From: a phage
DNA length: 64,000 bases
Direction: 5' to 3' (one strand)
Sequence record: PZ019084.1
The translations under genes and the position numbers were made by a program. Positions within the stretch are counted from its first letter, which is position 1; each line of letters begins with the position of its first letter. Below the pieces are notes generated by a model. It was not told the DNA's origin and ran no database searches. It saw only the letters and a list, made by a program, of their open reading frames with translations. Shown piece after piece: positions 15,680 through 23,487 of the stretch.

Positions 15680-15962
15680 TTTCTTCTCGGTTAAATCGGT
15701 GTTTGCAATGACGGCATTTATAACGAAGATTACTAGTCTGCCAATGGACTAATTGAACCTGTTCAGTACCGCATTCAGGACAATTAGGAACGTTTTTAGA
15801 AGCCCTTTCGCGACGTTCAACCATAGCCATAATGGCATCCCAAGCTGGAGGTTTAAAATCTAAATCGTCAGTAACTAGCAGTCCTTTATCAAACCCAGCG
15901 CATGGAGTCCATTCAGGAAAATCTGAAGCTTCGGCAATATCTTCTAATAGACGCTTTTTCAT
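15666..15962 (-). CDS. Small zinc-ribbon protein
   Basis: 98 aa; paired Cys motifs CPECGTE...CRHCKH. Confidence 0.45.
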
Positions 15963-16888
15963 TTCAATACCTCAATAGCATTACGTAAACCATTTGCTTT
16001 TGCATTAAGAGCTTTTAACAATTTAGTGTGTTCGGCAATCTGGGCTTCAACTTCAATCAAACGAGCATTGAGATATTCGCGTTCTTCGCTCAGGCTATCA
16101 ACCTTTTCTACTTTAGGTTCTTTTACAATTGGCTTGTATGTATTAGGGTTCTTCAGTTTAATTAGAATGCGTGAGCTGTATAACATTGAACCATTATCTT
16201 CGGTTTCGTCATACATTTCTACTACGTCCATGATTTTTAACATCATGCGGAGTTTATAAGACAACGAACGAATAGTTTTGTTGTGCTTATTAATTTCTCT
16301 AGCTGTCATGGTGCCGAGATTACGTGAGTAATAATAAGGAACCTGGATATTAATTAATACTGATGAACCACCTGGCTTGTGTGTTACTTCATCAGCAATA
16401 ACCCAGTCCTTAACATGAACTGTATTTGTACGGTCATCACCCGCGGTAAACAGTTTGCGAGCATGCTTAAAAAGCATATTCACTTGGTCATTGAATTGAC
16501 AAGCAAATTTATCAGCAAATTTAGTTTCAGGAATGGTAGATAACCAATCAGCCAAATGGGTCTTTTTAACATCGTTAACAATAGTAAATTCAACCAAATC
16601 GGTTATAGATGTCGCAGATTTAATGAAGCTCGGCTTCATAAAGTTTTTAATGTTATCACTAGCTACAGTAGAAGATAACAGACGAGAACGTTTAAACCAT
16701 TGAAGCAAATTGCCTAACGAATGAGAATAAGCGTTTTGAGTATCTTTACAGATATGATTTTCCTGGCCAACATATTGAAGGAAATCACGAAGAATATTAT
16801 TGATTATTGCTCTGTGCCCAATCTGATAATTACGATGTTTAGTAATAAGACTGTCAAAATAATCAATATAATGTTTACGAGTTTTCAT
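15959..16888 (-). CDS. Early protein, member of a tandem paralog family with C-terminal coiled coil
   Basis: 309 aa; starts MKTRKHYIDYFD; C-terminal heptad-like helix ([33 protein letters not shown]). Confidence 0.5.
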   Translation of the reverse strand: MKTRKHYIDYFDSLITKHRNYQIGHRAIINNILRDFLQYVGQENHICKDTQNAYSHSLGNLLQWFKRSRLLSSTVASDNIKNFMKPSFIKSATSITDLVEFTIVNDVKKTHLADWLSTIPETKFADKFACQFNDQVNMLFKHARKLFTAGDDRTNTVHVKDWVIADEVTHKPGGSSVLINIQVPYYYSRNLGTMTAREINKHNKTIRSLSYKLRMMLKIMDVVEMYDETEDNGSMLYSSRILIKLKNPNTYKPIVKEPKVEKVDSLSEEREYLNARLIEVEAQIAEHTKLLKALNAKANGLRNAIEVLK

Positions 16889-16940
16889 GTTCTTCTCACT
16901 TGGTTAATGATTTATACTCCGAGCCATCCTTGGCTTTAAA

Positions 16941-17942
16941 TTACTTAATTAACTGTAAAGCTTGTTCAAGACGATCCAGACGATTAACAGATTCTTCCCA
17001 AATCCTTTTAGCCTGCTCATATTCTTTCTGCGCTTTATTAGAAATTTCTAGAGCTTCTTTATAAGCTTTTTCTAGTGCAATAACTTCTGGACGAATTTCT
17101 ACATGTTCAGGCGAATCATCAAGATTATCCATTAGTTCCTCAAGTGTAATTTCTTCTTTAGGAGTATTCACAATTTCATCACATTTTTGTTGGTAAATTT
17201 CTTTATCAGTCGGTAAATAAGCACATTTCACTTCACGAAGACTAACTACAATTTTATATCCTTCCCAACCGCATATATTCTTAAAAGGATACGTATGAAT
17301 ATTTTCTACTGTTTCCATACAAAGTAATGCGGTTTCTAATTGACGAGTTATAGTGCTAGCAATTGAGAAAAATTTATTAATGTTCTTTTGGTTAGTTTCT
17401 GGTGTAAAAAATCCATAATTCACAAAAATAGATACTTTATTTTTATCAAGTTCATATTCTTTTATGATAATCATATCAGAAGCCAAAGGATGAATTTGAC
17501 GATAATCGCCATAACATAATTTAGAAGCTGATTTTAGAATCTGTCCTTTGAAAAGTCTGAAATTACTAATCCAACGACGAGTAAAAATATTCTCAGGGTC
17601 TTCTTTATTATTAAGATGATAAGAATTAACATCACCGAACCAATTATATCCTACTACATCTTTGGTTCGTTTAATTTCTTTCCCAAAATTACCAAGAATA
17701 TCCCGATTAACCAAATATGAAAGAAGACGAGACTCTTTAAAGGTTTTCTTGATAACATCTTTATCTACACGGCTAGAAATTTTACGAATTTCATGAATAA
17801 ATTTAGTAGAAGAAACAATACCTGCATCAACACTATTGAGCCATTGATTGATAATAGAAATAACGCTATTTTGACCAAACATCGGTATAGCTTTATCATC
17901 AATAACGCTGTTGAATGATTTGATATATTCGTTACGAGTCAT
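16941..17942 (-). CDS. Early protein, paralog family member
   Basis: Start set at MTRNEYIKSF (GAGGAG RBS; longer ORF start lies inside the promoter); C-terminal coiled coil. Confidence 0.5.
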   Translation of the reverse strand: MTRNEYIKSFNSVIDDKAIPMFGQNSVISIINQWLNSVDAGIVSSTKFIHEIRKISSRVDKDVIKKTFKESRLLSYLVNRDILGNFGKEIKRTKDVVGYNWFGDVNSYHLNNKEDPENIFTRRWISNFRLFKGQILKSASKLCYGDYRQIHPLASDMIIIKEYELDKNKVSIFVNYGFFTPETNQKNINKFFSIASTITRQLETALLCMETVENIHTYPFKNICGWEGYKIVVSLREVKCAYLPTDKEIYQQKCDEIVNTPKEEITLEELMDNLDDSPEHVEIRPEVIALEKAYKEALEISNKAQKEYEQAKRIWEESVNRLDRLEQALQLIK

Positions 17943-17970
17943 AATAATCTCCTCAGTAGAAAGTAAGAAC

Positions 17971-18000
17971 ATTATACCACATCCTTGTGGCGAAGTAAAC
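17971..18000 (-). promoter_or_regulatory. T4-type early promoter with spacer stem-loop (PeSL-like)
   Basis: Plus strand cattataccacATCCTTgtggcgaagtaaac: -10 complement, hairpin ccaca/tgtgg around ATCCTT, and gtaaac (-35). Confidence 0.55.
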
Positions 18001-19028
18001 TAGTTTAGTGCATTTAGTGCATTGTTTAGTTTAGAACGTTGCTTCGTGAGATTTTTGACTTTTTCTTGAGCTTTTTCTAGCATCTTTTCAGCTTCTAACA
18101 CTTCATTAGTTGCTTTAACGAGTTCATCATCTACTGCCTTGATAGACTTCTCAATCGCATCGGCATGCCATTTTTCAACAGGTTTAAGACTCGGATTTTC
18201 AACAGGAAGAAAATTCACTTTATTGAATTTCCATGCATCATTATTACCTGAACTATACATCCAAAATTTAGGATCGTTTGATGAGTAATTGGATAAATTT
18301 AAATTTAAGTTATCTTGCACTTCTTGCTTTTTCTCTTGTGTAACTTCGTCCTTTCTCAAAAATTCATATTTAAATGAAACGATCATATCAAGTTCATACG
18401 TTGTTGTATGTTCCCAATTTCGCTCAAAACGAGGTAAAATCTTAGACTGAACTGCAGCAACAACATCCATATACTTAAATGCTTCTGTCAACTGCGATTT
18501 AAGGCATTCGCAAATTGAAAGAGAATTTTTTGTATTAGGTTTAAAGCTAATTCGTGCAGTTCTGTTATTTTCTTTTAATGGTCTTACTTCCATCTGAAGA
18601 GTATAACCATCAAATTTCAGATTCTTTAAGTTAATATCAGAACCTTTTAATCGACTCGCAGTTGATAAAATTTGCTTTAATTGTCTACGGAACAGAGCAA
18701 TAAATCTCCATTCAATACGATAATGATTTGGATTGAAAAATCCAGATAATAAATCGACCTTACTTTGACCAACGCCTTGAACAAATAGAGGATTTTTATA
18801 ATCAATAGTTTTACAGAAATCTGTGAGCTGCTCACGAGCCGTCATTTGTGTAATATACCCCGCTTTACTAAAATTACTCACCCATTCACTGCTATTTAGA
18901 TATTTAAAATGATGAATAGCACGATTAACTTTATCAGGGTCTAAATTATTTTGACACAAAAATGTCATAACATCACGAGTATAGCTGGCATTACGAACCA
19001 TATCTTCAATTTGAGAACGAGTTTTCAT
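18000..19028 (-). CDS. Early protein, paralog family member
   Basis: 342 aa; starts MKTRSQIEDMV; C-terminal coiled coil (EKMLEKAQEKVKNLTKQRSKLNNALNALN). Confidence 0.5.
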   Translation of the reverse strand: MKTRSQIEDMVRNASYTRDVMTFLCQNNLDPDKVNRAIHHFKYLNSSEWVSNFSKAGYITQMTAREQLTDFCKTIDYKNPLFVQGVGQSKVDLLSGFFNPNHYRIEWRFIALFRRQLKQILSTASRLKGSDINLKNLKFDGYTLQMEVRPLKENNRTARISFKPNTKNSLSICECLKSQLTEAFKYMDVVAAVQSKILPRFERNWEHTTTYELDMIVSFKYEFLRKDEVTQEKKQEVQDNLNLNLSNYSSNDPKFWMYSSGNNDAWKFNKVNFLPVENPSLKPVEKWHADAIEKSIKAVDDELVKATNEVLEAEKMLEKAQEKVKNLTKQRSKLNNALNALN

Positions 19029-19036
19029 GGTGTTCC

Positions 19037-19948
19037 TTAAGATTTAAGTAAATCAACAATTTTAATTAACTTTTCACGCTCAGATTTAGCTTTACTACTC
19101 AATCCAGATAGTCTGAAAATTTCATCGTCATATTGTTGAATAGAAATATTCAGCTCTTCAATCTGCTTATTAAAATAATCAATTTGTTCAGAATGTTTTT
19201 CGTTACTACGAACTGGTACAGGTTTTGTAGGCAATGTAGTTGAACTGGATTCATCCGGGCGATAAATTAAAATACAGCTTGAACCAATAGGGCATTTTTC
19301 ACCAGATGAATATTCTAATGTTCCAGCTTCTTTTAAAACTTCAAAAGCTAAACAGAGATGATGACCCATATTAACATAATCTGTAGAGTGAGCTCTGATG
19401 TAATAATCATCTCCACGAATACTAAATTTAAAGCATTTAAGGTCTTCTGTATTATTGGTCTTAAAAATCATTTGTTTATCTAGACCTTTAGCTAATCGAG
19501 CGCCTAATGCTAATAGTCGTCGTTGATTTTCCCACAAATCTGCGATCATTTGATCGAATGATAATTTTGGCATCAGTCGACCATAAAGGTCATATCCTTT
19601 ATTGTAATTACGAAGAATTTCACTCGCGTTAATACGAGACAATGCTCCAATTTTATTAAGGGCTTTCATAATGCGATTAGATAAACTCATTCCAGACCCA
19701 TTTGTTCGCTGTAAATGTTTTTCTAATCCAAATCCAATATCAACTTTAAACTTATCTAAAATTTCTGCATGAACATCTCTGTCGATAACATTCAAATCCA
19801 AAGTTGAGTTAAATCTATGAAAAAATTTATCTGGCTCTCCACGACGAAGTACAGTCCATTCATTCATCATTTTTTTATTAACTAAAGATTTAATTACTGC
19901 ATTGACATTATTAATTACTACTGACATATTTTCCTCACTCAATTTCAA
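19037..19948 (-). CDS. Early protein with C-terminal coiled coil (possible fourth family member)
   Basis: 303 aa; similar size and C-terminal helix, but N-terminus differs (MKLSEENMSV). Confidence 0.45.
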   Translation of the reverse strand: MKLSEENMSVVINNVNAVIKSLVNKKMMNEWTVLRRGEPDKFFHRFNSTLDLNVIDRDVHAEILDKFKVDIGFGLEKHLQRTNGSGMSLSNRIMKALNKIGALSRINASEILRNYNKGYDLYGRLMPKLSFDQMIADLWENQRRLLALGARLAKGLDKQMIFKTNNTEDLKCFKFSIRGDDYYIRAHSTDYVNMGHHLCLAFEVLKEAGTLEYSSGEKCPIGSSCILIYRPDESSSTTLPTKPVPVRSNEKHSEQIDYFNKQIEELNISIQQYDDEIFRLSGLSSKAKSEREKLIKIVDLLKS

Positions 19949-20342
19949 TTTTACTAAATATACAGAATAAGATGGAACAGACTATATAAGCACCACACAC
20001 AGATTGAACTAATACCATTCCAAAGAACCAAACAATATTATCAAACAATGTCTGTTTTACGTCGAAAGGACGTAAACTTACAGTAATATTATCACCTTTT
20101 TCTATTGAAGAATACATCTCTGGGGAAATATATTCACTAAATCTATAACCATCTTTGAGTTCATATACGGCAATAAACGATAAACTAGACCCTTTTCCTT
20201 GTGTTCCTGTAATGGTATTAACTACAGTAACATCATAATCTTTATAATGCATATAATCATTAATTGCGTAATAACCATATGCAACTACTACACATAAACA
20301 ACATATCAATAAATTCAATCTTTTAATTATCAACTGTTTCAT
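19935..20342 (-). CDS. Membrane protein
   Basis: 135 aa; hydrophobic N-terminal and C-terminal segments. Confidence 0.45.
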   Translation of the reverse strand: MKQLIIKRLNLLICCLCVVVAYGYYAINDYMHYKDYDVTVVNTITGTQGKGSSLSFIAVYELKDGYRFSEYISPEMYSSIEKGDNITVSLRPFDVKQTLFDNIVWFFGMVLVQSVCGAYIVCSILFCIFSKIEIE

Positions 20343-20370: not shown

Positions 20371-20396
20371 CATTATACCATCCTTGGTATAAAGCG
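20371..20396 (-). promoter_or_regulatory. Early promoter -10 region with spacer stem-loop (weak -35)
   Basis: Plus strand cattataccATCCTTggtataaagc: TGGTATAATG on coding strand; hairpin tacca/tggta around ATCCTT. Confidence 0.4.
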
Positions 20397-20985: not shown

Positions 20986-21300
20986 CTAAAAGAAACTTCT
21001 TTCACAATTTTTTCCACTGAACCATGCGCTCACTACTTTCTTAGTCTCAGGAGCAGTGTTATCCATAAACCATTCAAAGGCAGCCTTTTTATGATTCTGG
21101 AGGGCTTCTCGGGCTTTAATCTGCTCGCGGTCTATTAACACTAACATATGAGCCTTTCTTGTCACCATGGGCTTCTTATGATTTTTTGAATACTCCCAGT
21201 CATTTGTCCATCGCATTGTCGTTGCGAACTGAAATACTGCTTCTTTAATTTTAGTTTCGTAAATTTCACGAGCCTTTGAGTATAACATCACTACCTCCAT
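20986..21300 (-). CDS. Hypothetical protein
   Basis: 104 aa ORF. Confidence 0.4.
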   Translation of the reverse strand: MEVVMLYSKAREIYETKIKEAVFQFATTMRWTNDWEYSKNHKKPMVTRKAHMLVLIDREQIKAREALQNHKKAAFEWFMDNTAPETKKVVSAWFSGKNCERSFF

Positions 21301-21389: not shown

Positions 21390-22358
21390 TTATTTCAGAA
21401 GAGTAACCTCAGCGATTTCTTCCCAACCGTTTTTATCGGTCATAATAAAGTCAGCAAGATAAAGAGCAGTACGCAGTGAAACATTGCGTAAACGATTAAC
21501 ATTAACTTTCATCCATGATAATGCTTTATAAGTTTCTTCATCAGAAAGACCGCGCTTTTGCATCATGTCAGTTGAAAGAATAACATCTTCAACCCTGACC
21601 ATAATTTCTTCATTAGTGTGAACACCCAAATCCAAATAAACCGAGCGGGACACTAATGCTTGTAAATGTGGAGCAAGTTTAGTACCACGGTCTAATTCGC
21701 GGTCAATGTCAACGTTTGTGATAAAAACAATCGTTCCTTTAAATTCAAACTCACGGTCAATGCCTTTTTCTTCTAAGTAAGAAGACGCAGTGCTCCAGCA
21801 GACTTTACGGGTCTCTCCAGTGTCCAGAGCGGCTTTTAGAAGATTAAGAATGTCCATATCAGAGAAAACATCCACATCATCAATCAAAAGGACAGAATTC
21901 TCTTCACGATTATTCCAAAGCTGCTCATAAAGACCAATACCAGAGATTTTACCATTAATACTTTTATATTCAATGTATCCAATATCATTTGCTTTATTTA
22001 AAGCTTTATCTAAAGAATACGTTTTACCAATACCTGCTGCGCCAGAGATAATCAATGAACGAATATTTCCGTTAATAATACCATTCGTCATCATTCCCAT
22101 AACATTAAATCTTTTATTAATGCGGGTTTTCATATCTTCATACGATTCTTTAACTTCCTCAACTTTTACACCATCATATGAAATATCTGATTTGTAAACC
22201 CAAACACCGCGACGTTTACCGTCAATTTCAACAAAAACTTTACCATCTCCTTGTGCATCTACCGGAGCATTATCTGGGAACCATTCGCCTAAGAGCTCAA
22301 AAGTTCCAGAGATTTCTTTACCGAAGTAGATACCCTTATTGATAGTTACAGTTTTCAT
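21390..22358 (-). CDS. P-loop ATPase (AAA-like)
   Basis: Walker A GAAGIGKTY and Walker B-like LLIDDVD; start set at MKTVTINKG (GGAG RBS) just downstream of the early promoter. Confidence 0.6.
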   Translation of the reverse strand: MKTVTINKGIYFGKEISGTFELLGEWFPDNAPVDAQGDGKVFVEIDGKRRGVWVYKSDISYDGVKVEEVKESYEDMKTRINKRFNVMGMMTNGIINGNIRSLIISGAAGIGKTYSLDKALNKANDIGYIEYKSINGKISGIGLYEQLWNNREENSVLLIDDVDVFSDMDILNLLKAALDTGETRKVCWSTASSYLEEKGIDREFEFKGTIVFITNVDIDRELDRGTKLAPHLQALVSRSVYLDLGVHTNEEIMVRVEDVILSTDMMQKRGLSDEETYKALSWMKVNVNRLRNVSLRTALYLADFIMTDKNGWEEIAEVTLLK

Positions 22359-22391
22359 TTTATTCTCCAAATCCGTATCAGTTGATAGTTG

Positions 22392-22422
22392 TATAGTACC
22401 ATAAAGCTTTATGCTTGTAAAC
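22392..22422 (-). promoter_or_regulatory. T4-type early promoter
   Basis: Plus strand tatagtacca...gtaaaccgttttgtgaaaaaa. Confidence 0.6.
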
Positions 22423-22453
22423 CGTTTTGTGAAAAAATTTTGAAATAAAAAAA

Positions 22454-22471
22454 GGGAGCCCGAAGGCTCCC
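22454..22471 (-). terminator. UUCG-loop GC hairpin with U-run (intrinsic terminator)
   Basis: Minus strand gggagccTTCGggctcccTTTTTTT directly after the stop of the 337 aa ORF. Confidence 0.65.
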
Positions 22472-22473
22472 TA

Positions 22474-23487
22474 TCATTTATAATAACTTCGGTGGTTTTC
22501 AAGATAAACCCTCTCAAGGAAGTCATCCCAGAAACCCATGTCTACTTTTTGCTGCATACCGTTCTTAGAAGCTTCAATGGATGCTGCTTCTACTTGATCG
22601 ACCACATCTTCCAAAAACTCTTGAACAGTTTTAAATGGATGTTTACCCAGCTTCACGTCGAGAATAAATGGAGCGTCTTGAAGTGGATAGACTAAGTCAC
22701 CAGTTTTGTAAATTTCCAATAGTTGGAGTCCACCACGACAAGCATGACTCAGAGCTTTCCAGTCAATGCCCTCATTCGCTTCAGCCTTACGAGCACGTTC
22801 GCCATATTCAGCATCTAATTTATTCAGTGACTGTTTAAGCTCGATAAGAGAAAGCGTTGTTTGATATTTACGACCCAACACAGTGTAGAACGTTTGTGGG
22901 CCTGTTTTCTCATGATTATGGAATACCCATTCACAGAATTCGTTCTCTGGAAGACGATGCTTAATATCTTCAACTTTAGTTCGACGAAGTCTATCAGGGA
23001 TTCCTTCTTGATAATCAACCCACTGATCGGGGATTTGATTAACTACTTTCAATACATCACGCAATGCGGCCAAACGAGAACCCTTGACGCCGTATTTAGA
23101 AGCTTGCTTGCGAACATATCCTAAATAGGATTTCATGTTAGTCGTATAAAAACGAGAACGATTGTCTTGAATAAACTTCCATACATCAGGCAAATCAGAT
23201 TTAACTACCAGTTCAGGTGGAGTGTGAAGCATATCCAATGCTACAGTTTCACCATCTGCTGCTAATTTAAAGAAATATTTAAGACTATATAGTTCATGGT
23301 CAATATCATCTTTAGTGTTTTTAGATGATGTATTGTTAGTGTTTTTGCTCATATGCTCTTTAACATTTCCGATAAGAATATCGCGAGCAGGAGGAACAAA
23401 GATTTCTTTAAAATCTACATCAGATTCTGGAGTAGAAGTTCCATAAAGATGACTACCAAAATAGCTTTTCATTACTGTTTTCATCAT
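22474..23487 (-). CDS. Predicted nucleotidyltransferase-fold protein (Pol-beta-like NTase motif)
   Basis: 337 aa; N-terminal FGSHLYGTSTPESDVDF fits the hG[GS]x(9-13)DhD NTase signature; helical C-terminal region. Confidence 0.5.
   Translation of the reverse strand: MMKTVMKSYFGSHLYGTSTPESDVDFKEIFVPPARDILIGNVKEHMSKNTNNTSSKNTKDDIDHELYSLKYFFKLAADGETVALDMLHTPPELVVKSDLPDVWKFIQDNRSRFYTTNMKSYLGYVRKQASKYGVKGSRLAALRDVLKVVNQIPDQWVDYQEGIPDRLRRTKVEDIKHRLPENEFCEWVFHNHEKTGPQTFYTVLGRKYQTTLSLIELKQSLNKLDAEYGERARKAEANEGIDWKALSHACRGGLQLLEIYKTGDLVYPLQDAPFILDVKLGKHPFKTVQEFLEDVVDQVEAASIEASKNGMQQKVDMGFWDDFLERVYLENHRSYYK

Follow-up and report, generated by a model that had tools for sequence, protein, structure and literature searches.

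Four tandem nrdC.3-nrdC.6 genes of a T4-like phage encode diverged proteins with C-terminal heptad-repeat helices and a probable counter-defence role

We analysed a 64,000-nucleotide stretch of phage DNA (PZ019084.1; the window), which is a Tequatrovirus (T4-like) genome. Consistently with an initial annotation that had described four consecutive genes over nearly 4 kb, positions 15959-19948 were filled in the open reading frame list by four consecutive ORFs, all on the minus strand. These are the T4 genes nrdC.3, nrdC.4, nrdC.5 and nrdC.6, arranged as in the T4 annotation, and the best megablast match of the region showed 97.6% identity with 100% of the region covered. After correction of two starts, the homologues of nrdC.3 (15959..16888, 309 aa), nrdC.4 (16941..17942, 333 aa), nrdC.5 (18000..19028, 342 aa) and nrdC.6 (19037..19927, 296 aa) were delimited. 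The sequence places the start of nrdC.4 at 17942 (MTRNEY...) instead of 17972, to which the ORF extends, because a GAGGAG Shine-Dalgarno lies ahead of the ATG at 17942, the upstream ATG falls within a promoter -10 box and nrdC.4 homologues are mostly 332-333 aa long; nrdC.6 starts at 19927 (MSVVINN...) instead of the TTG at 19948, where its ORF begins. The window nrdC.5 is 94% identical to T4 nrdC.5, equal in length and position, and nrdC.3 is a mosaic allele, with 61% identity to T4 nrdC.3 versus 78% to the Mosigvirus allele.

Pfam and PHROGs place the four proteins in three separate families. The nrdC.5 product matched DUF7235 (PF23882) over residues 1-342, its full length, with 427.5 bits (cut-off 30), and the Pfam search returned no PF23882 match for nrdC.3, nrdC.4 or nrdC.6. 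Full-length profile matches to phrog_1435 were shared by nrdC.3 (E 1e-115) and nrdC.4 (E 1e-166); the newer Pfam family PF26897 is carried by all nrdC.4 homologues and also by a fusion protein that has nrdC.3 as its C-terminal portion. The nrdC.6 product matched phrog_2257 over its full length (E 1e-151), and its homologues bear PF26899. No PDB structure or named family matching the array proteins was found, nor did structural comparison reveal similarity to any known anti-defence protein. Many GenBank records label these genes thioredoxin or glutaredoxin, a label derived from the name of the neighbouring gene nrdC. We rejected this identity, as no thioredoxin or glutaredoxin match was obtained in Pfam or NCBIfam and the CxxC motif is absent from all four sequences.

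The initial annotation had regarded the genes as tandem paralogues on the basis of similar termini. Plain BLASTP among the four proteins linked no pair except nrdC.3 and nrdC.4 (24% identity over 318 aa, E 2e-7), and the identity of nrdC.3, nrdC.4 and nrdC.6 to nrdC.5 and to each other was 17-26%. Using enriched profiles, hhalign joined nrdC.3 to nrdC.4 (P 98.6%, E 1e-15) and nrdC.4 to nrdC.5 (P 94.6%, E 6.5e-8, 236 collinear columns), while unrelated neighbours, used as controls, gave E 0.04-0.65. Single-copy homologues from Klebsiella and Enterobacter phages served as bridges, the Marfa/IME523 proteins matching nrdC.4 at E 3.7e-10 and nrdC.5 at E 5e-9. Judged from these alignments, nrdC.3, nrdC.4 and nrdC.5 are homologous across nearly their full length, the similarity being collinear over most of it and reaching beyond the termini.

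The M(K)TR start that had been noticed in three of the proteins was found in nrdC.3 (MKTRKHY), nrdC.4 (MTRNEY) and nrdC.5 (MKTRSQI), with T2, R3, Y6 and I7 invariant in the nrdC.3/nrdC.4 alignment, and is absent from nrdC.6. All four proteins do end in an amphipathic helix: over the C-terminal 49 residues, the heptad a/d positions were 86-93% hydrophobic versus 17-29% elsewhere, a pattern matched by at most 5 of 2000 shuffles. On the minus strand, these helices are encoded at 15962..16108 for nrdC.3 (0.86 versus 0.29; 5/2000 shuffles), 16944..17090 for nrdC.4 (0.86 versus 0.26; 3/2000), 18003..18149 for nrdC.5 (0.93 versus 0.17; 0/2000) and 19040..19186 for nrdC.6 (0.86 versus 0.20; 0/2000), and AlphaFold2 predicted long terminal helices in nrdC.4 (residues 285-332) and nrdC.6 (243-272 and 278-295). 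When 23 sequences representing five groups were aligned, they showed a linker motif, P-x-h-h-P-h-E, followed by a heptad helix ending in L-x-x-A/I-h-x-h-L-K. Within orthologue groups the last 40 residues were more conserved than the body (for instance 60-70% versus 32-42% in nrdC.6), and between paralogues the tails were only 15-27% identical. The conserved positions of the superfamily alignment were hydrophobic or charge-class only, plus the terminal LK, with no invariant polar residue, which argues for a binder rather than an enzyme. Three of the four proteins have basic bodies (pI 9.2-9.5), which would also suit nucleic-acid binding.

Early promoters and stem-loops had been reported between the genes, a description that was partly confirmed. 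Upstream of nrdC.4 lies one clear promoter of the T4 early type (17971..17999, minus strand; TTTACT, 17 nt, TATAAT, with an upstream TG), and the pattern had four matches in the window versus 0.69 expected. The junction at 17999-17942 thereby contains promoter, Shine-Dalgarno and start, with a 5-bp hairpin, CCACA-AGGA-TGTGG (17990-17977), inside the promoter spacer (fold z -0.9). Upstream of nrdC.3 we found a weaker, putative promoter-like and hairpin module (16911..16932, minus strand; GCCAAGGATGGC ... TATAAA) with no good -35 box, and the same module (CAAGGATGG-TATAAT), again with no good -35 box, precedes nrdC.7 (20372..20386, minus strand). The latter probably drives nrdC.7, nrdC.6 and nrdC.5 together, since these genes overlap or lie 8 nt apart, and the 8-nt nrdC.6-nrdC.5 gap holds no promoter. 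A full promoter is present at only one of the three array junctions; hairpins in the array did not exceed 5-6 bp, and intergenic folding did not surpass that of shuffled sequences (z about -1). The arrangement partly resembles the promoter-early stem-loop (PeSL) elements of T4-like hyperplastic regions (Arbiol 2010, Comeau 2014) in its TTTACW-N17-TAYWAT promoter, small hairpin, Shine-Dalgarno and start codon, and intact or degraded PeSL copies are reported in the PST genome at about 43-51 kb, spanning the PST nrdC array. Before nrdC.10 of the window there is also a PeSL-like arrangement of a terminator-like hairpin (22472-22453) and a promoter-like site (22421-22393). Unlike in PeSL, the array hairpins sit within or beside the promoter spacer and not clearly upstream.

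Comparison across T4-like genomes agreed with the proposal of a diversifying plasticity region. The locus, which lies upstream of nrdC.2-nrdC in enterobacterial phages, holds one to four copies according to lineage: four in Tequatrovirus, three in Gaprivervirus and Dhakavirus (nrdC.6-nrdC.5-nrdC.4) and in Mosigvirus (nrdC.6-nrdC.5-nrdC.3), two in Acinetobacter phage Acj61 and one in Marfavirus and Kanagawavirus. Natural deletion fusions and an internal duplication were also found. Between genera the array proteins were 22-50% identical versus 67-89% for the flanking nrdC, nrdC.8 and nrdC.10, and within Tequatrovirus their dN/dS was 0.10-0.23 versus 0.007-0.08 for nrdC, nrdC.1, nrdC.8, nrdC.9 and nrdC.10. 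With dN/dS below 1 for all four array genes, gene-wide positive selection was not seen, and these values speak for accelerated turnover.

Regarding function, host takeover or anti-defence had been suggested, and a counter-defence activity is published for T4 nrdC.5, which, supplied in trans, enables a deletion mutant to form plaques again on MG1655 with dsr1 from ECOR17 (Srikant, Guegler and Laub, eLife 2022, PMC9391042). The gene at 18000-19028 is the orthologue of this Dsr1 suppressor, and its 94% identity to the T4 protein suggests that the window nrdC.5 has anti-Dsr1 activity as well. Its neighbours nrdC.3, nrdC.4 and, most likely, nrdC.6 are remote homologues with the same architecture that, unlike T4 NrdC.5, fall in other Pfam/PHROG families, and all three are candidates for further immune-evasion factors. 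The TPR sensor of Dsr1 is reported to recognise phage major capsid proteins (2026 preprint, PMC12803255). DSAD1, the SPbeta-phage inhibitor of DSR2, blocks a defence-associated sirtuin NADase by binding to it, which offers a possible model of NrdC.5 action. An inhibitor of Dsr1 that is produced early would fit in time, as T4 makes its major capsid protein late in infection. The array also recalls the T4 Dmd/TifA/AdfA "anti-TA island" (PMC9391042) and the internal proteins IPI-IPIII (PMC4122927), which are non-essential, early or injected, clustered and variable among relatives, each tuned to one host system; those clusters consist of unrelated small proteins, whereas the nrdC array would be one tandem-expanded family with a common coiled-coil tail.

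We favour, with a probability of roughly 60%, the reading that duplication gave rise to a family of soluble early proteins whose role is to bind host defence proteins and neutralise them. The genes would descend, by ancient tandem duplication, from one gene that sits between nrdC and nrdC.10 in T4-related phages and, in the enterobacterial ones among these, directly upstream of nrdC.2-nrdC. Each gene encodes a soluble protein some 300-340 aa long, in which a helical bundle at the N-terminus is followed by a helix-helix-beta-beta-alpha-beta-beta core, then by a linker that contains proline and finally by the heptad-repeat helix. Transcription would be early, driven by promoters of the T4 early type, and counter-defence by binding would be the most likely function. 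The C-terminal helix, conserved within orthologue groups and different between paralogues, probably oligomerises the protein. The fast-evolving body would probably bind a host immune protein and neutralise it before it can be triggered. For nrdC.5 that immune protein would be the SIR2 NADase Dsr1; nrdC.3, nrdC.4 and nrdC.6 would act on other host factors.

The evidence linking nrdC.5 to Dsr1 is genetic, and nrdC.5 might instead affect the trigger or a later step. In a rival explanation, which we consider unlikely, the array proteins would serve host takeover or regulation, with nucleic acid or the transcription/replication machinery as their binding partner, and nrdC.5 would counter Dsr1 indirectly (for example through altered timing or trigger masking).

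The favoured reading of a duplicated counter-defence family includes nrdC.6, the copy that has diverged most and whose membership is the weakest link. Were only nrdC.3, nrdC.4 and nrdC.5 true paralogues, nrdC.6 would be unrelated to them, resembling them only in size and in its coiled-coil end, and both its missing M(K)TR start and the weak direct hhalign results of its profile against the other three (E 0.002-0.06, P 1-15%) would agree with this. Against a merged profile of nrdC.3, nrdC.4, nrdC.5 and the single-copy proteins, however, nrdC.6 scored P 75% and E 2.4e-5 across two shared motifs that follow each other in like order, while the unrelated controls remained at E 0.04 or worse; its profile scores are moderate (P 44-75%). 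A BLASTP bridge connected IME523 gp085 to VR7 nrdC.6 (24% over 192 aa, E 7e-7), and the linker and C-terminal end motifs of the 23-sequence alignment are common to nrdC.6 and the other paralogues. The AlphaFold2 models of nrdC.4 (pLDDT 81.9) and nrdC.6 (pLDDT 77.7) have an identical order of secondary-structure elements; the nrdC.4 model matched JS10 nrdC.6 in Foldseek (E 3e-5), and both models matched the same proteins of IME523, PM2, Acj9, Acj61, Mineola and fHe-Yen9-01, with probability 1.00 and reciprocal shared matches, at a whole-chain TM for nrdC.6 membership of only 0.37-0.42, which is low. These data strongly suggest that nrdC.6 shares the motifs and fold of the superfamily, and an unrelated origin appears quite improbable. 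Enriched profiles, bridging homologues and AlphaFold/Foldseek together join all four proteins in one proposed superfamily.

Exclusion of competing phages or mobile elements, in place of host counter-defence, is very improbable: T4 hyperplastic regions also hold exclusion genes, and nrdC.5 gave a sub-threshold match to the surface-exclusion domain NCBIfam TIGR04320 (E 0.0028, 17 bits versus a cut-off of 70), but the array proteins contain no membrane segments, PADLOC returned no significant match (its sole match, of coiled-coil type, was nrdC.4 to BrxC at E 0.0098, below cut-off) and what has been published for nrdC.5 is a counter-defence phenotype.

Going further than the favoured counter-defence reading, and rather doubtfully, NrdC.3-6 might form a dedicated immune-sensor inhibitor family, in which a conserved coiled coil serves as the oligomerisation handle for interchangeable fast-evolving bodies, each blocking a different host pattern-recognition protein (e.g. 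TPR sensors of the Dsr1/Avs7 type that respond to late phage proteins). New specificities would then arise through tandem duplication and through inter-genus exchange of cassettes at the promoter/hairpin junctions, of which the window, with its mosaic nrdC.3 allele, would provide an example. About 4 kb of the early region of T4, the best-studied phage, is annotated merely as hypothetical or wrongly as thioredoxin, and tying nrdC.3, nrdC.4 and nrdC.6 to nrdC.5 yields three concrete counter-defence candidates. The family would offer a simple case in which to follow the expansion and reshuffling of anti-immunity genes by a phage, and it may be relevant to the choice and engineering of T4-like therapeutic phages with broader host range.

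The window is T4-like (Tequatrovirus) DNA. Along the minus strand the genes run nrdC.10, nrdC.9, nrdC.8, nrdC.7, nrdC.6, nrdC.5, nrdC.4, nrdC.3, nrdC.2, nrdC.1 and nrdC, an order shared with the T4 annotation, and the 3,990-bp region holding nrdC.6 to nrdC.3 (the array) matched 657 phage records, the best with 97.6% identity over the full length. The four consecutive open reading frames of the initial annotation are present (nrdC.6, 19037-19948; nrdC.5, 18000-19028; nrdC.4, 16941-17972; nrdC.3, 15959-16888; all on the minus strand), but two starts need moving. We placed the nrdC.4 start at 17942 (MTRNEY, 333 aa), because a GAGGAG Shine-Dalgarno precedes it, the upstream ATG lies inside the promoter -10 box and most homologues have 332-333 aa; that of nrdC.6 moves to 19927 (MSVVINN, 296 aa). 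The label "thioredoxin", carried by nrdC.1 to nrdC.10 in many GenBank records, is a mistaken annotation that spread from the locus and gene names, and a thioredoxin signature (thioredoxin model matches, CxxC motif) was absent from the four array proteins. Further along the locus, the listed 378-aa frame (21390-22526) over-extends, since a strong terminator-like hairpin (22472-22453, minus strand; AGGGAGCC-TTCG-GGCTCCCT plus a T run) and, after it, a promoter-like site (22421-22393, minus strand; TTTACA-17-TACTAT) precede nrdC.10 within 22472-22393; the nrdC.10 start is probably at 22358, giving 322 aa with 99% identity to T4 nrdC.10.

The array genes themselves have long been known, and one carries a published counter-defence phenotype. 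T4 was evolved on toxIN-carrying cells (Srikant, Guegler, Laub, eLife 2022, PMC9391042), and an evolved clone with compensatory deletions lost infection of ECOR17 and regained it when dsr1, encoding a SIR2 NADase, was deleted from that host; plasmid-borne dsr1 shielded MG1655 from the T4 deletion mutant, and T4 nrdC.5 in trans restored plaquing (PMC9391042). In our literature searches, no study after this 2022 paper addressed the mechanism of nrdC.5 or of anti-Dsr1 proteins. The NrdC.5 protein of the window is 94% identical to that of T4. T4 makes its major capsid protein from a late gene. According to a 2026 preprint (PMC12803255), the TPR sensor domain that Dsr1 and Avs7 have in common detects the major capsid proteins of phages; an early-made inhibitor would already be in place before such a late trigger appears. 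Direct binding of Dsr1 by NrdC.5 would be the simplest mechanism, by analogy with DSAD1, which binds DSR2 and keeps it from being activated. We consider it unlikely that these proteins instead serve host takeover by binding nucleic acids, with an indirect effect of nrdC.5 on Dsr1. The anti-defence role suggested in the initial annotation thus draws its support from the published T4 nrdC.5 phenotype, and nrdC.3, nrdC.4 and nrdC.6, as candidates, may be tuned to other host factors. In Acinetobacter phage Acj61, adjacent nicotinamide phosphoribosyltransferase and ribose-phosphate pyrophosphokinase genes (locus L007, 1229-3938 in its own coordinates) lie ~30 kb from two nrdC.3-6-like genes and may form an NAD+ salvage module such as phages deploy against NAD-depleting defences.

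Plain pairwise BLASTP among the four proteins supported nrdC.3/nrdC.4 (24% over 318 aa, E 2e-7) and no other pair; PHROGs holds these two in one family and nrdC.5 and nrdC.6 each separately, and Pfam distributes the four over three families (PF26897, PF23882, PF26899). Since the first, low-diversity profiles joined nrdC.4 and nrdC.5 at only P 77%, we enriched the profiles with Gaprivervirus, Dhakavirus and Mosigvirus orthologues and with the single-copy homologues of Klebsiella phage Marfa and Enterobacter phage IME523. Enriched profile-profile comparison related nrdC.3 to nrdC.4 (P 98.6%, E 1e-15), nrdC.4 to nrdC.5 (P 94.6%, E 6.5e-8, 236 collinear columns), and both nrdC.4 and nrdC.5 to the single-copy proteins (E 3.7e-10 and 5e-9, respectively), while the unrelated-neighbour controls nrdC.8 and Marfa gp084 reached only E 0.04-0.65. 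PDB sequence searches returned no match or designed helical repeats only, and PADLOC and NCBIfam searches gave no match above cut-off.

The outlier is nrdC.6, and its weakness in direct profile comparisons would suit a protein unrelated to the other three, which we nonetheless judge unlikely given its match to the merged profile of the others (E 2.4e-5, P 75%), with two shared motifs [(S/A)R-x-L-S...A...L-x-N-F/Y and L-x-x-A-x-(K/R)-L...G-D/L], a BLASTP link between IME523 gp085 and VR7 nrdC.6 (E 7e-7 over 192 aa), and an element order identical to that of the nrdC.4 model. The AlphaFold2 models of nrdC.4 and nrdC.6 (pLDDT 81.9 and 77.7) share the succession helical bundle, helix-helix-short helix, beta hairpin, long helix, beta hairpin, linker and terminal helix. 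Searched against BFVD, the nrdC.4 model matched JS10 nrdC.6 (E 3e-5, probability 1.0), and both models retrieved one set of Foldseek matches, 300-335-aa proteins of T4-like phages of Enterobacter, Pectobacterium, Acinetobacter, Klebsiella and Yersinia. Whole-chain TM scores were low (0.37-0.48), plausibly because the position of the terminal helices against the body changes from model to model. Taken together, enriched profiles and structure models make homology of all four proteins very likely, as the proposed tandem paralogous family implied, the nrdC.6 link being strongly suggested. We rejected as a fifth member nrdC.8 (hhalign E 0.036-0.46), a 175-aa protein that also has an amphipathic helix at its C-terminal end, although a KPV15 protein of equal length (175 aa) did appear as a weak Foldseek match; Marfa gp084 and IME523 gp088 were rejected as unrelated.

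Once starts were corrected, the M(K)TR N-terminus was indeed common to three proteins: a TR-x-EY-I motif is invariant in the nrdC.3/nrdC.4 alignment (T2, R3, Y6, I7) and recurs in nrdC.5-like and single-copy relatives from other genera. The C-terminal amphipathic helix was found in all four, with a clean heptad pattern in the last 49 residues of each, where a/d positions were hydrophobic in 86-93% against 17-29% elsewhere (equalled by at most 5 of 2000 shuffles); long terminal helices were also predicted in the nrdC.4 and nrdC.6 models. Among the orthologues of each gene, conservation is higher over the last 40 residues than over the body (nrdC.6, 60-70% vs 32-42% identity; nrdC.4, 62% vs 43-48%), and between paralogues the tails share only 15-27%. 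The coiled coil would supply oligomerisation, and orthologue-specific tail conservation would be in keeping with homo-oligomers that pair with a target which is itself oligomeric.

The predicted diversification is borne out as faster divergence than in most flanking genes. Between genera, array proteins share 22-50% identity, against 67-89% for the flanking nrdC, nrdC.8 and nrdC.10; among six Tequatrovirus genomes, array dN/dS was 0.10-0.23, against 0.007-0.08 for nrdC, nrdC.1, nrdC.8, nrdC.9 and nrdC.10, with nrdC.7 as high as the array (0.22), and synonymous divergence also exceeded that of most flanks. This pattern reflects faster turnover, probably with allele exchange, and not gene-wide positive selection. 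The window nrdC.3 (15959-16888) is a mosaic allele whose first ~30 residues follow T4, while residues 61-300 are close to the Mosigvirus (RB69-like) allele (~90% identity) and far from that of T4 (33-60%); together with the tblastn identity classes of nrdC.3 across phages (roughly at least 92%, 75-79% and ~60%), this suggests cassette exchange between genera. Nearby, nrdC.9 (20986-21300) is hypervariable too (24-29% identity between genera), and nrdC.7 (19935-20342) encodes a predicted membrane protein, whose Mosigvirus copy is 35% identical and relocated between nrdC.2 and nrdC.

Copy number at the locus, between nrdC and nrdC.10 and, in enterobacterial phages, directly upstream of nrdC.2-nrdC, varies from one to four among phage lineages, which substantiates the suspected plasticity: Tequatrovirus has four copies, Gaprivervirus and Dhakavirus three (nrdC.6-nrdC.5-nrdC.4), Mosigvirus three (nrdC.6-nrdC.5-nrdC.3), Acj61 two adjacent structure-level relatives, and Marfavirus and Kanagawavirus one. 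By tblastn in a 50,697-record phage collection, nrdC.3 was found in 654 records, nrdC.4 in 554, nrdC.5 in 736 and nrdC.6 in 742, nearly all from Enterobacteriaceae phages. A search of 1.84 billion representative proteins with the nrdC.3/nrdC.4 profile gave only 10 matches, and the family is therefore narrow; this search did not reach nrdC.5 or nrdC.6. The Acj61 genes (gp120 and gp121, 330 and 304 aa; locus L008, 3452-5472 in its own coordinates) are adjacent between nrdC and nrdC.10. They are tied to the family only by Foldseek (against the nrdC.4 model, E 2e-7 and 1.3e-5; gp121 against the nrdC.6 model, E 3.5e-4), by synteny and size, and by an SR...L..FG motif that can be made out by eye; sequence similarity is barely detectable and establishes no link (best E 0.0018 in hhalign). 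The tandem pair in Twarogvirinae thus looks either independent in origin or ancient. Among proteins from public metagenome or phage records, P0056 joins the middle of nrdC.5 in frame to the C-terminal half of nrdC.3, a natural fusion at a KVN/QVN microhomology with nrdC.4 deleted, and P0122, from Shigella phage Sf25, carries a tandem duplication of ~80 aa inside nrdC.6; in some other phages nothing but a C-terminal remnant is left of nrdC.3, nrdC.4 or nrdC.6.

The promoters and stem-loops described between the genes held in part. One clear T4-type early promoter precedes nrdC.4 (17999-17971, minus strand; TTTACT, 17 nt, TATAAT with TG), and weaker CAAGGATGG...TATAA(T/A) modules precede nrdC.3 and nrdC.7, but the nrdC.6-nrdC.5 gap is 8 nt without a promoter, and the array hairpins are tiny (5-6 bp), with intergenic folds no better than shuffles. 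A generic sigma-70 scan showed no promoter enrichment (34 vs 33.6 in shuffles). The pattern CAAGGATG(N0-14)TATAA(A/T) has exactly three matches in the whole 64 kb, all intergenic on the minus strand, 5' of nrdC.7 (20372-20386), nrdC.4 (17971-17987) and nrdC.3 (16911-16932); each folds a small CCA(C)A-AGGA-TG(T)GG hairpin, and a GAGATTATTATG start region is common to nrdC.7 and nrdC.4. This three-copy module looks like a repeated regulatory cassette resembling the promoter-early stem-loop (PeSL) elements of T4/PST hyperplastic regions. Degraded PeSL copies are reported at ~43-51 kb in PST (PMC4122927), the interval within which we located the PST nrdC array.

The tandem array first noticed from sequence is thus real and its interpretation supported. 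Our analysis brings the three database families together as a single superfamily expanded in tandem, adds its copy-number history and a pattern of conserved tails on fast-evolving bodies, and provides, in nrdC.3, nrdC.4 and nrdC.6, three testable candidate counter-defence genes.
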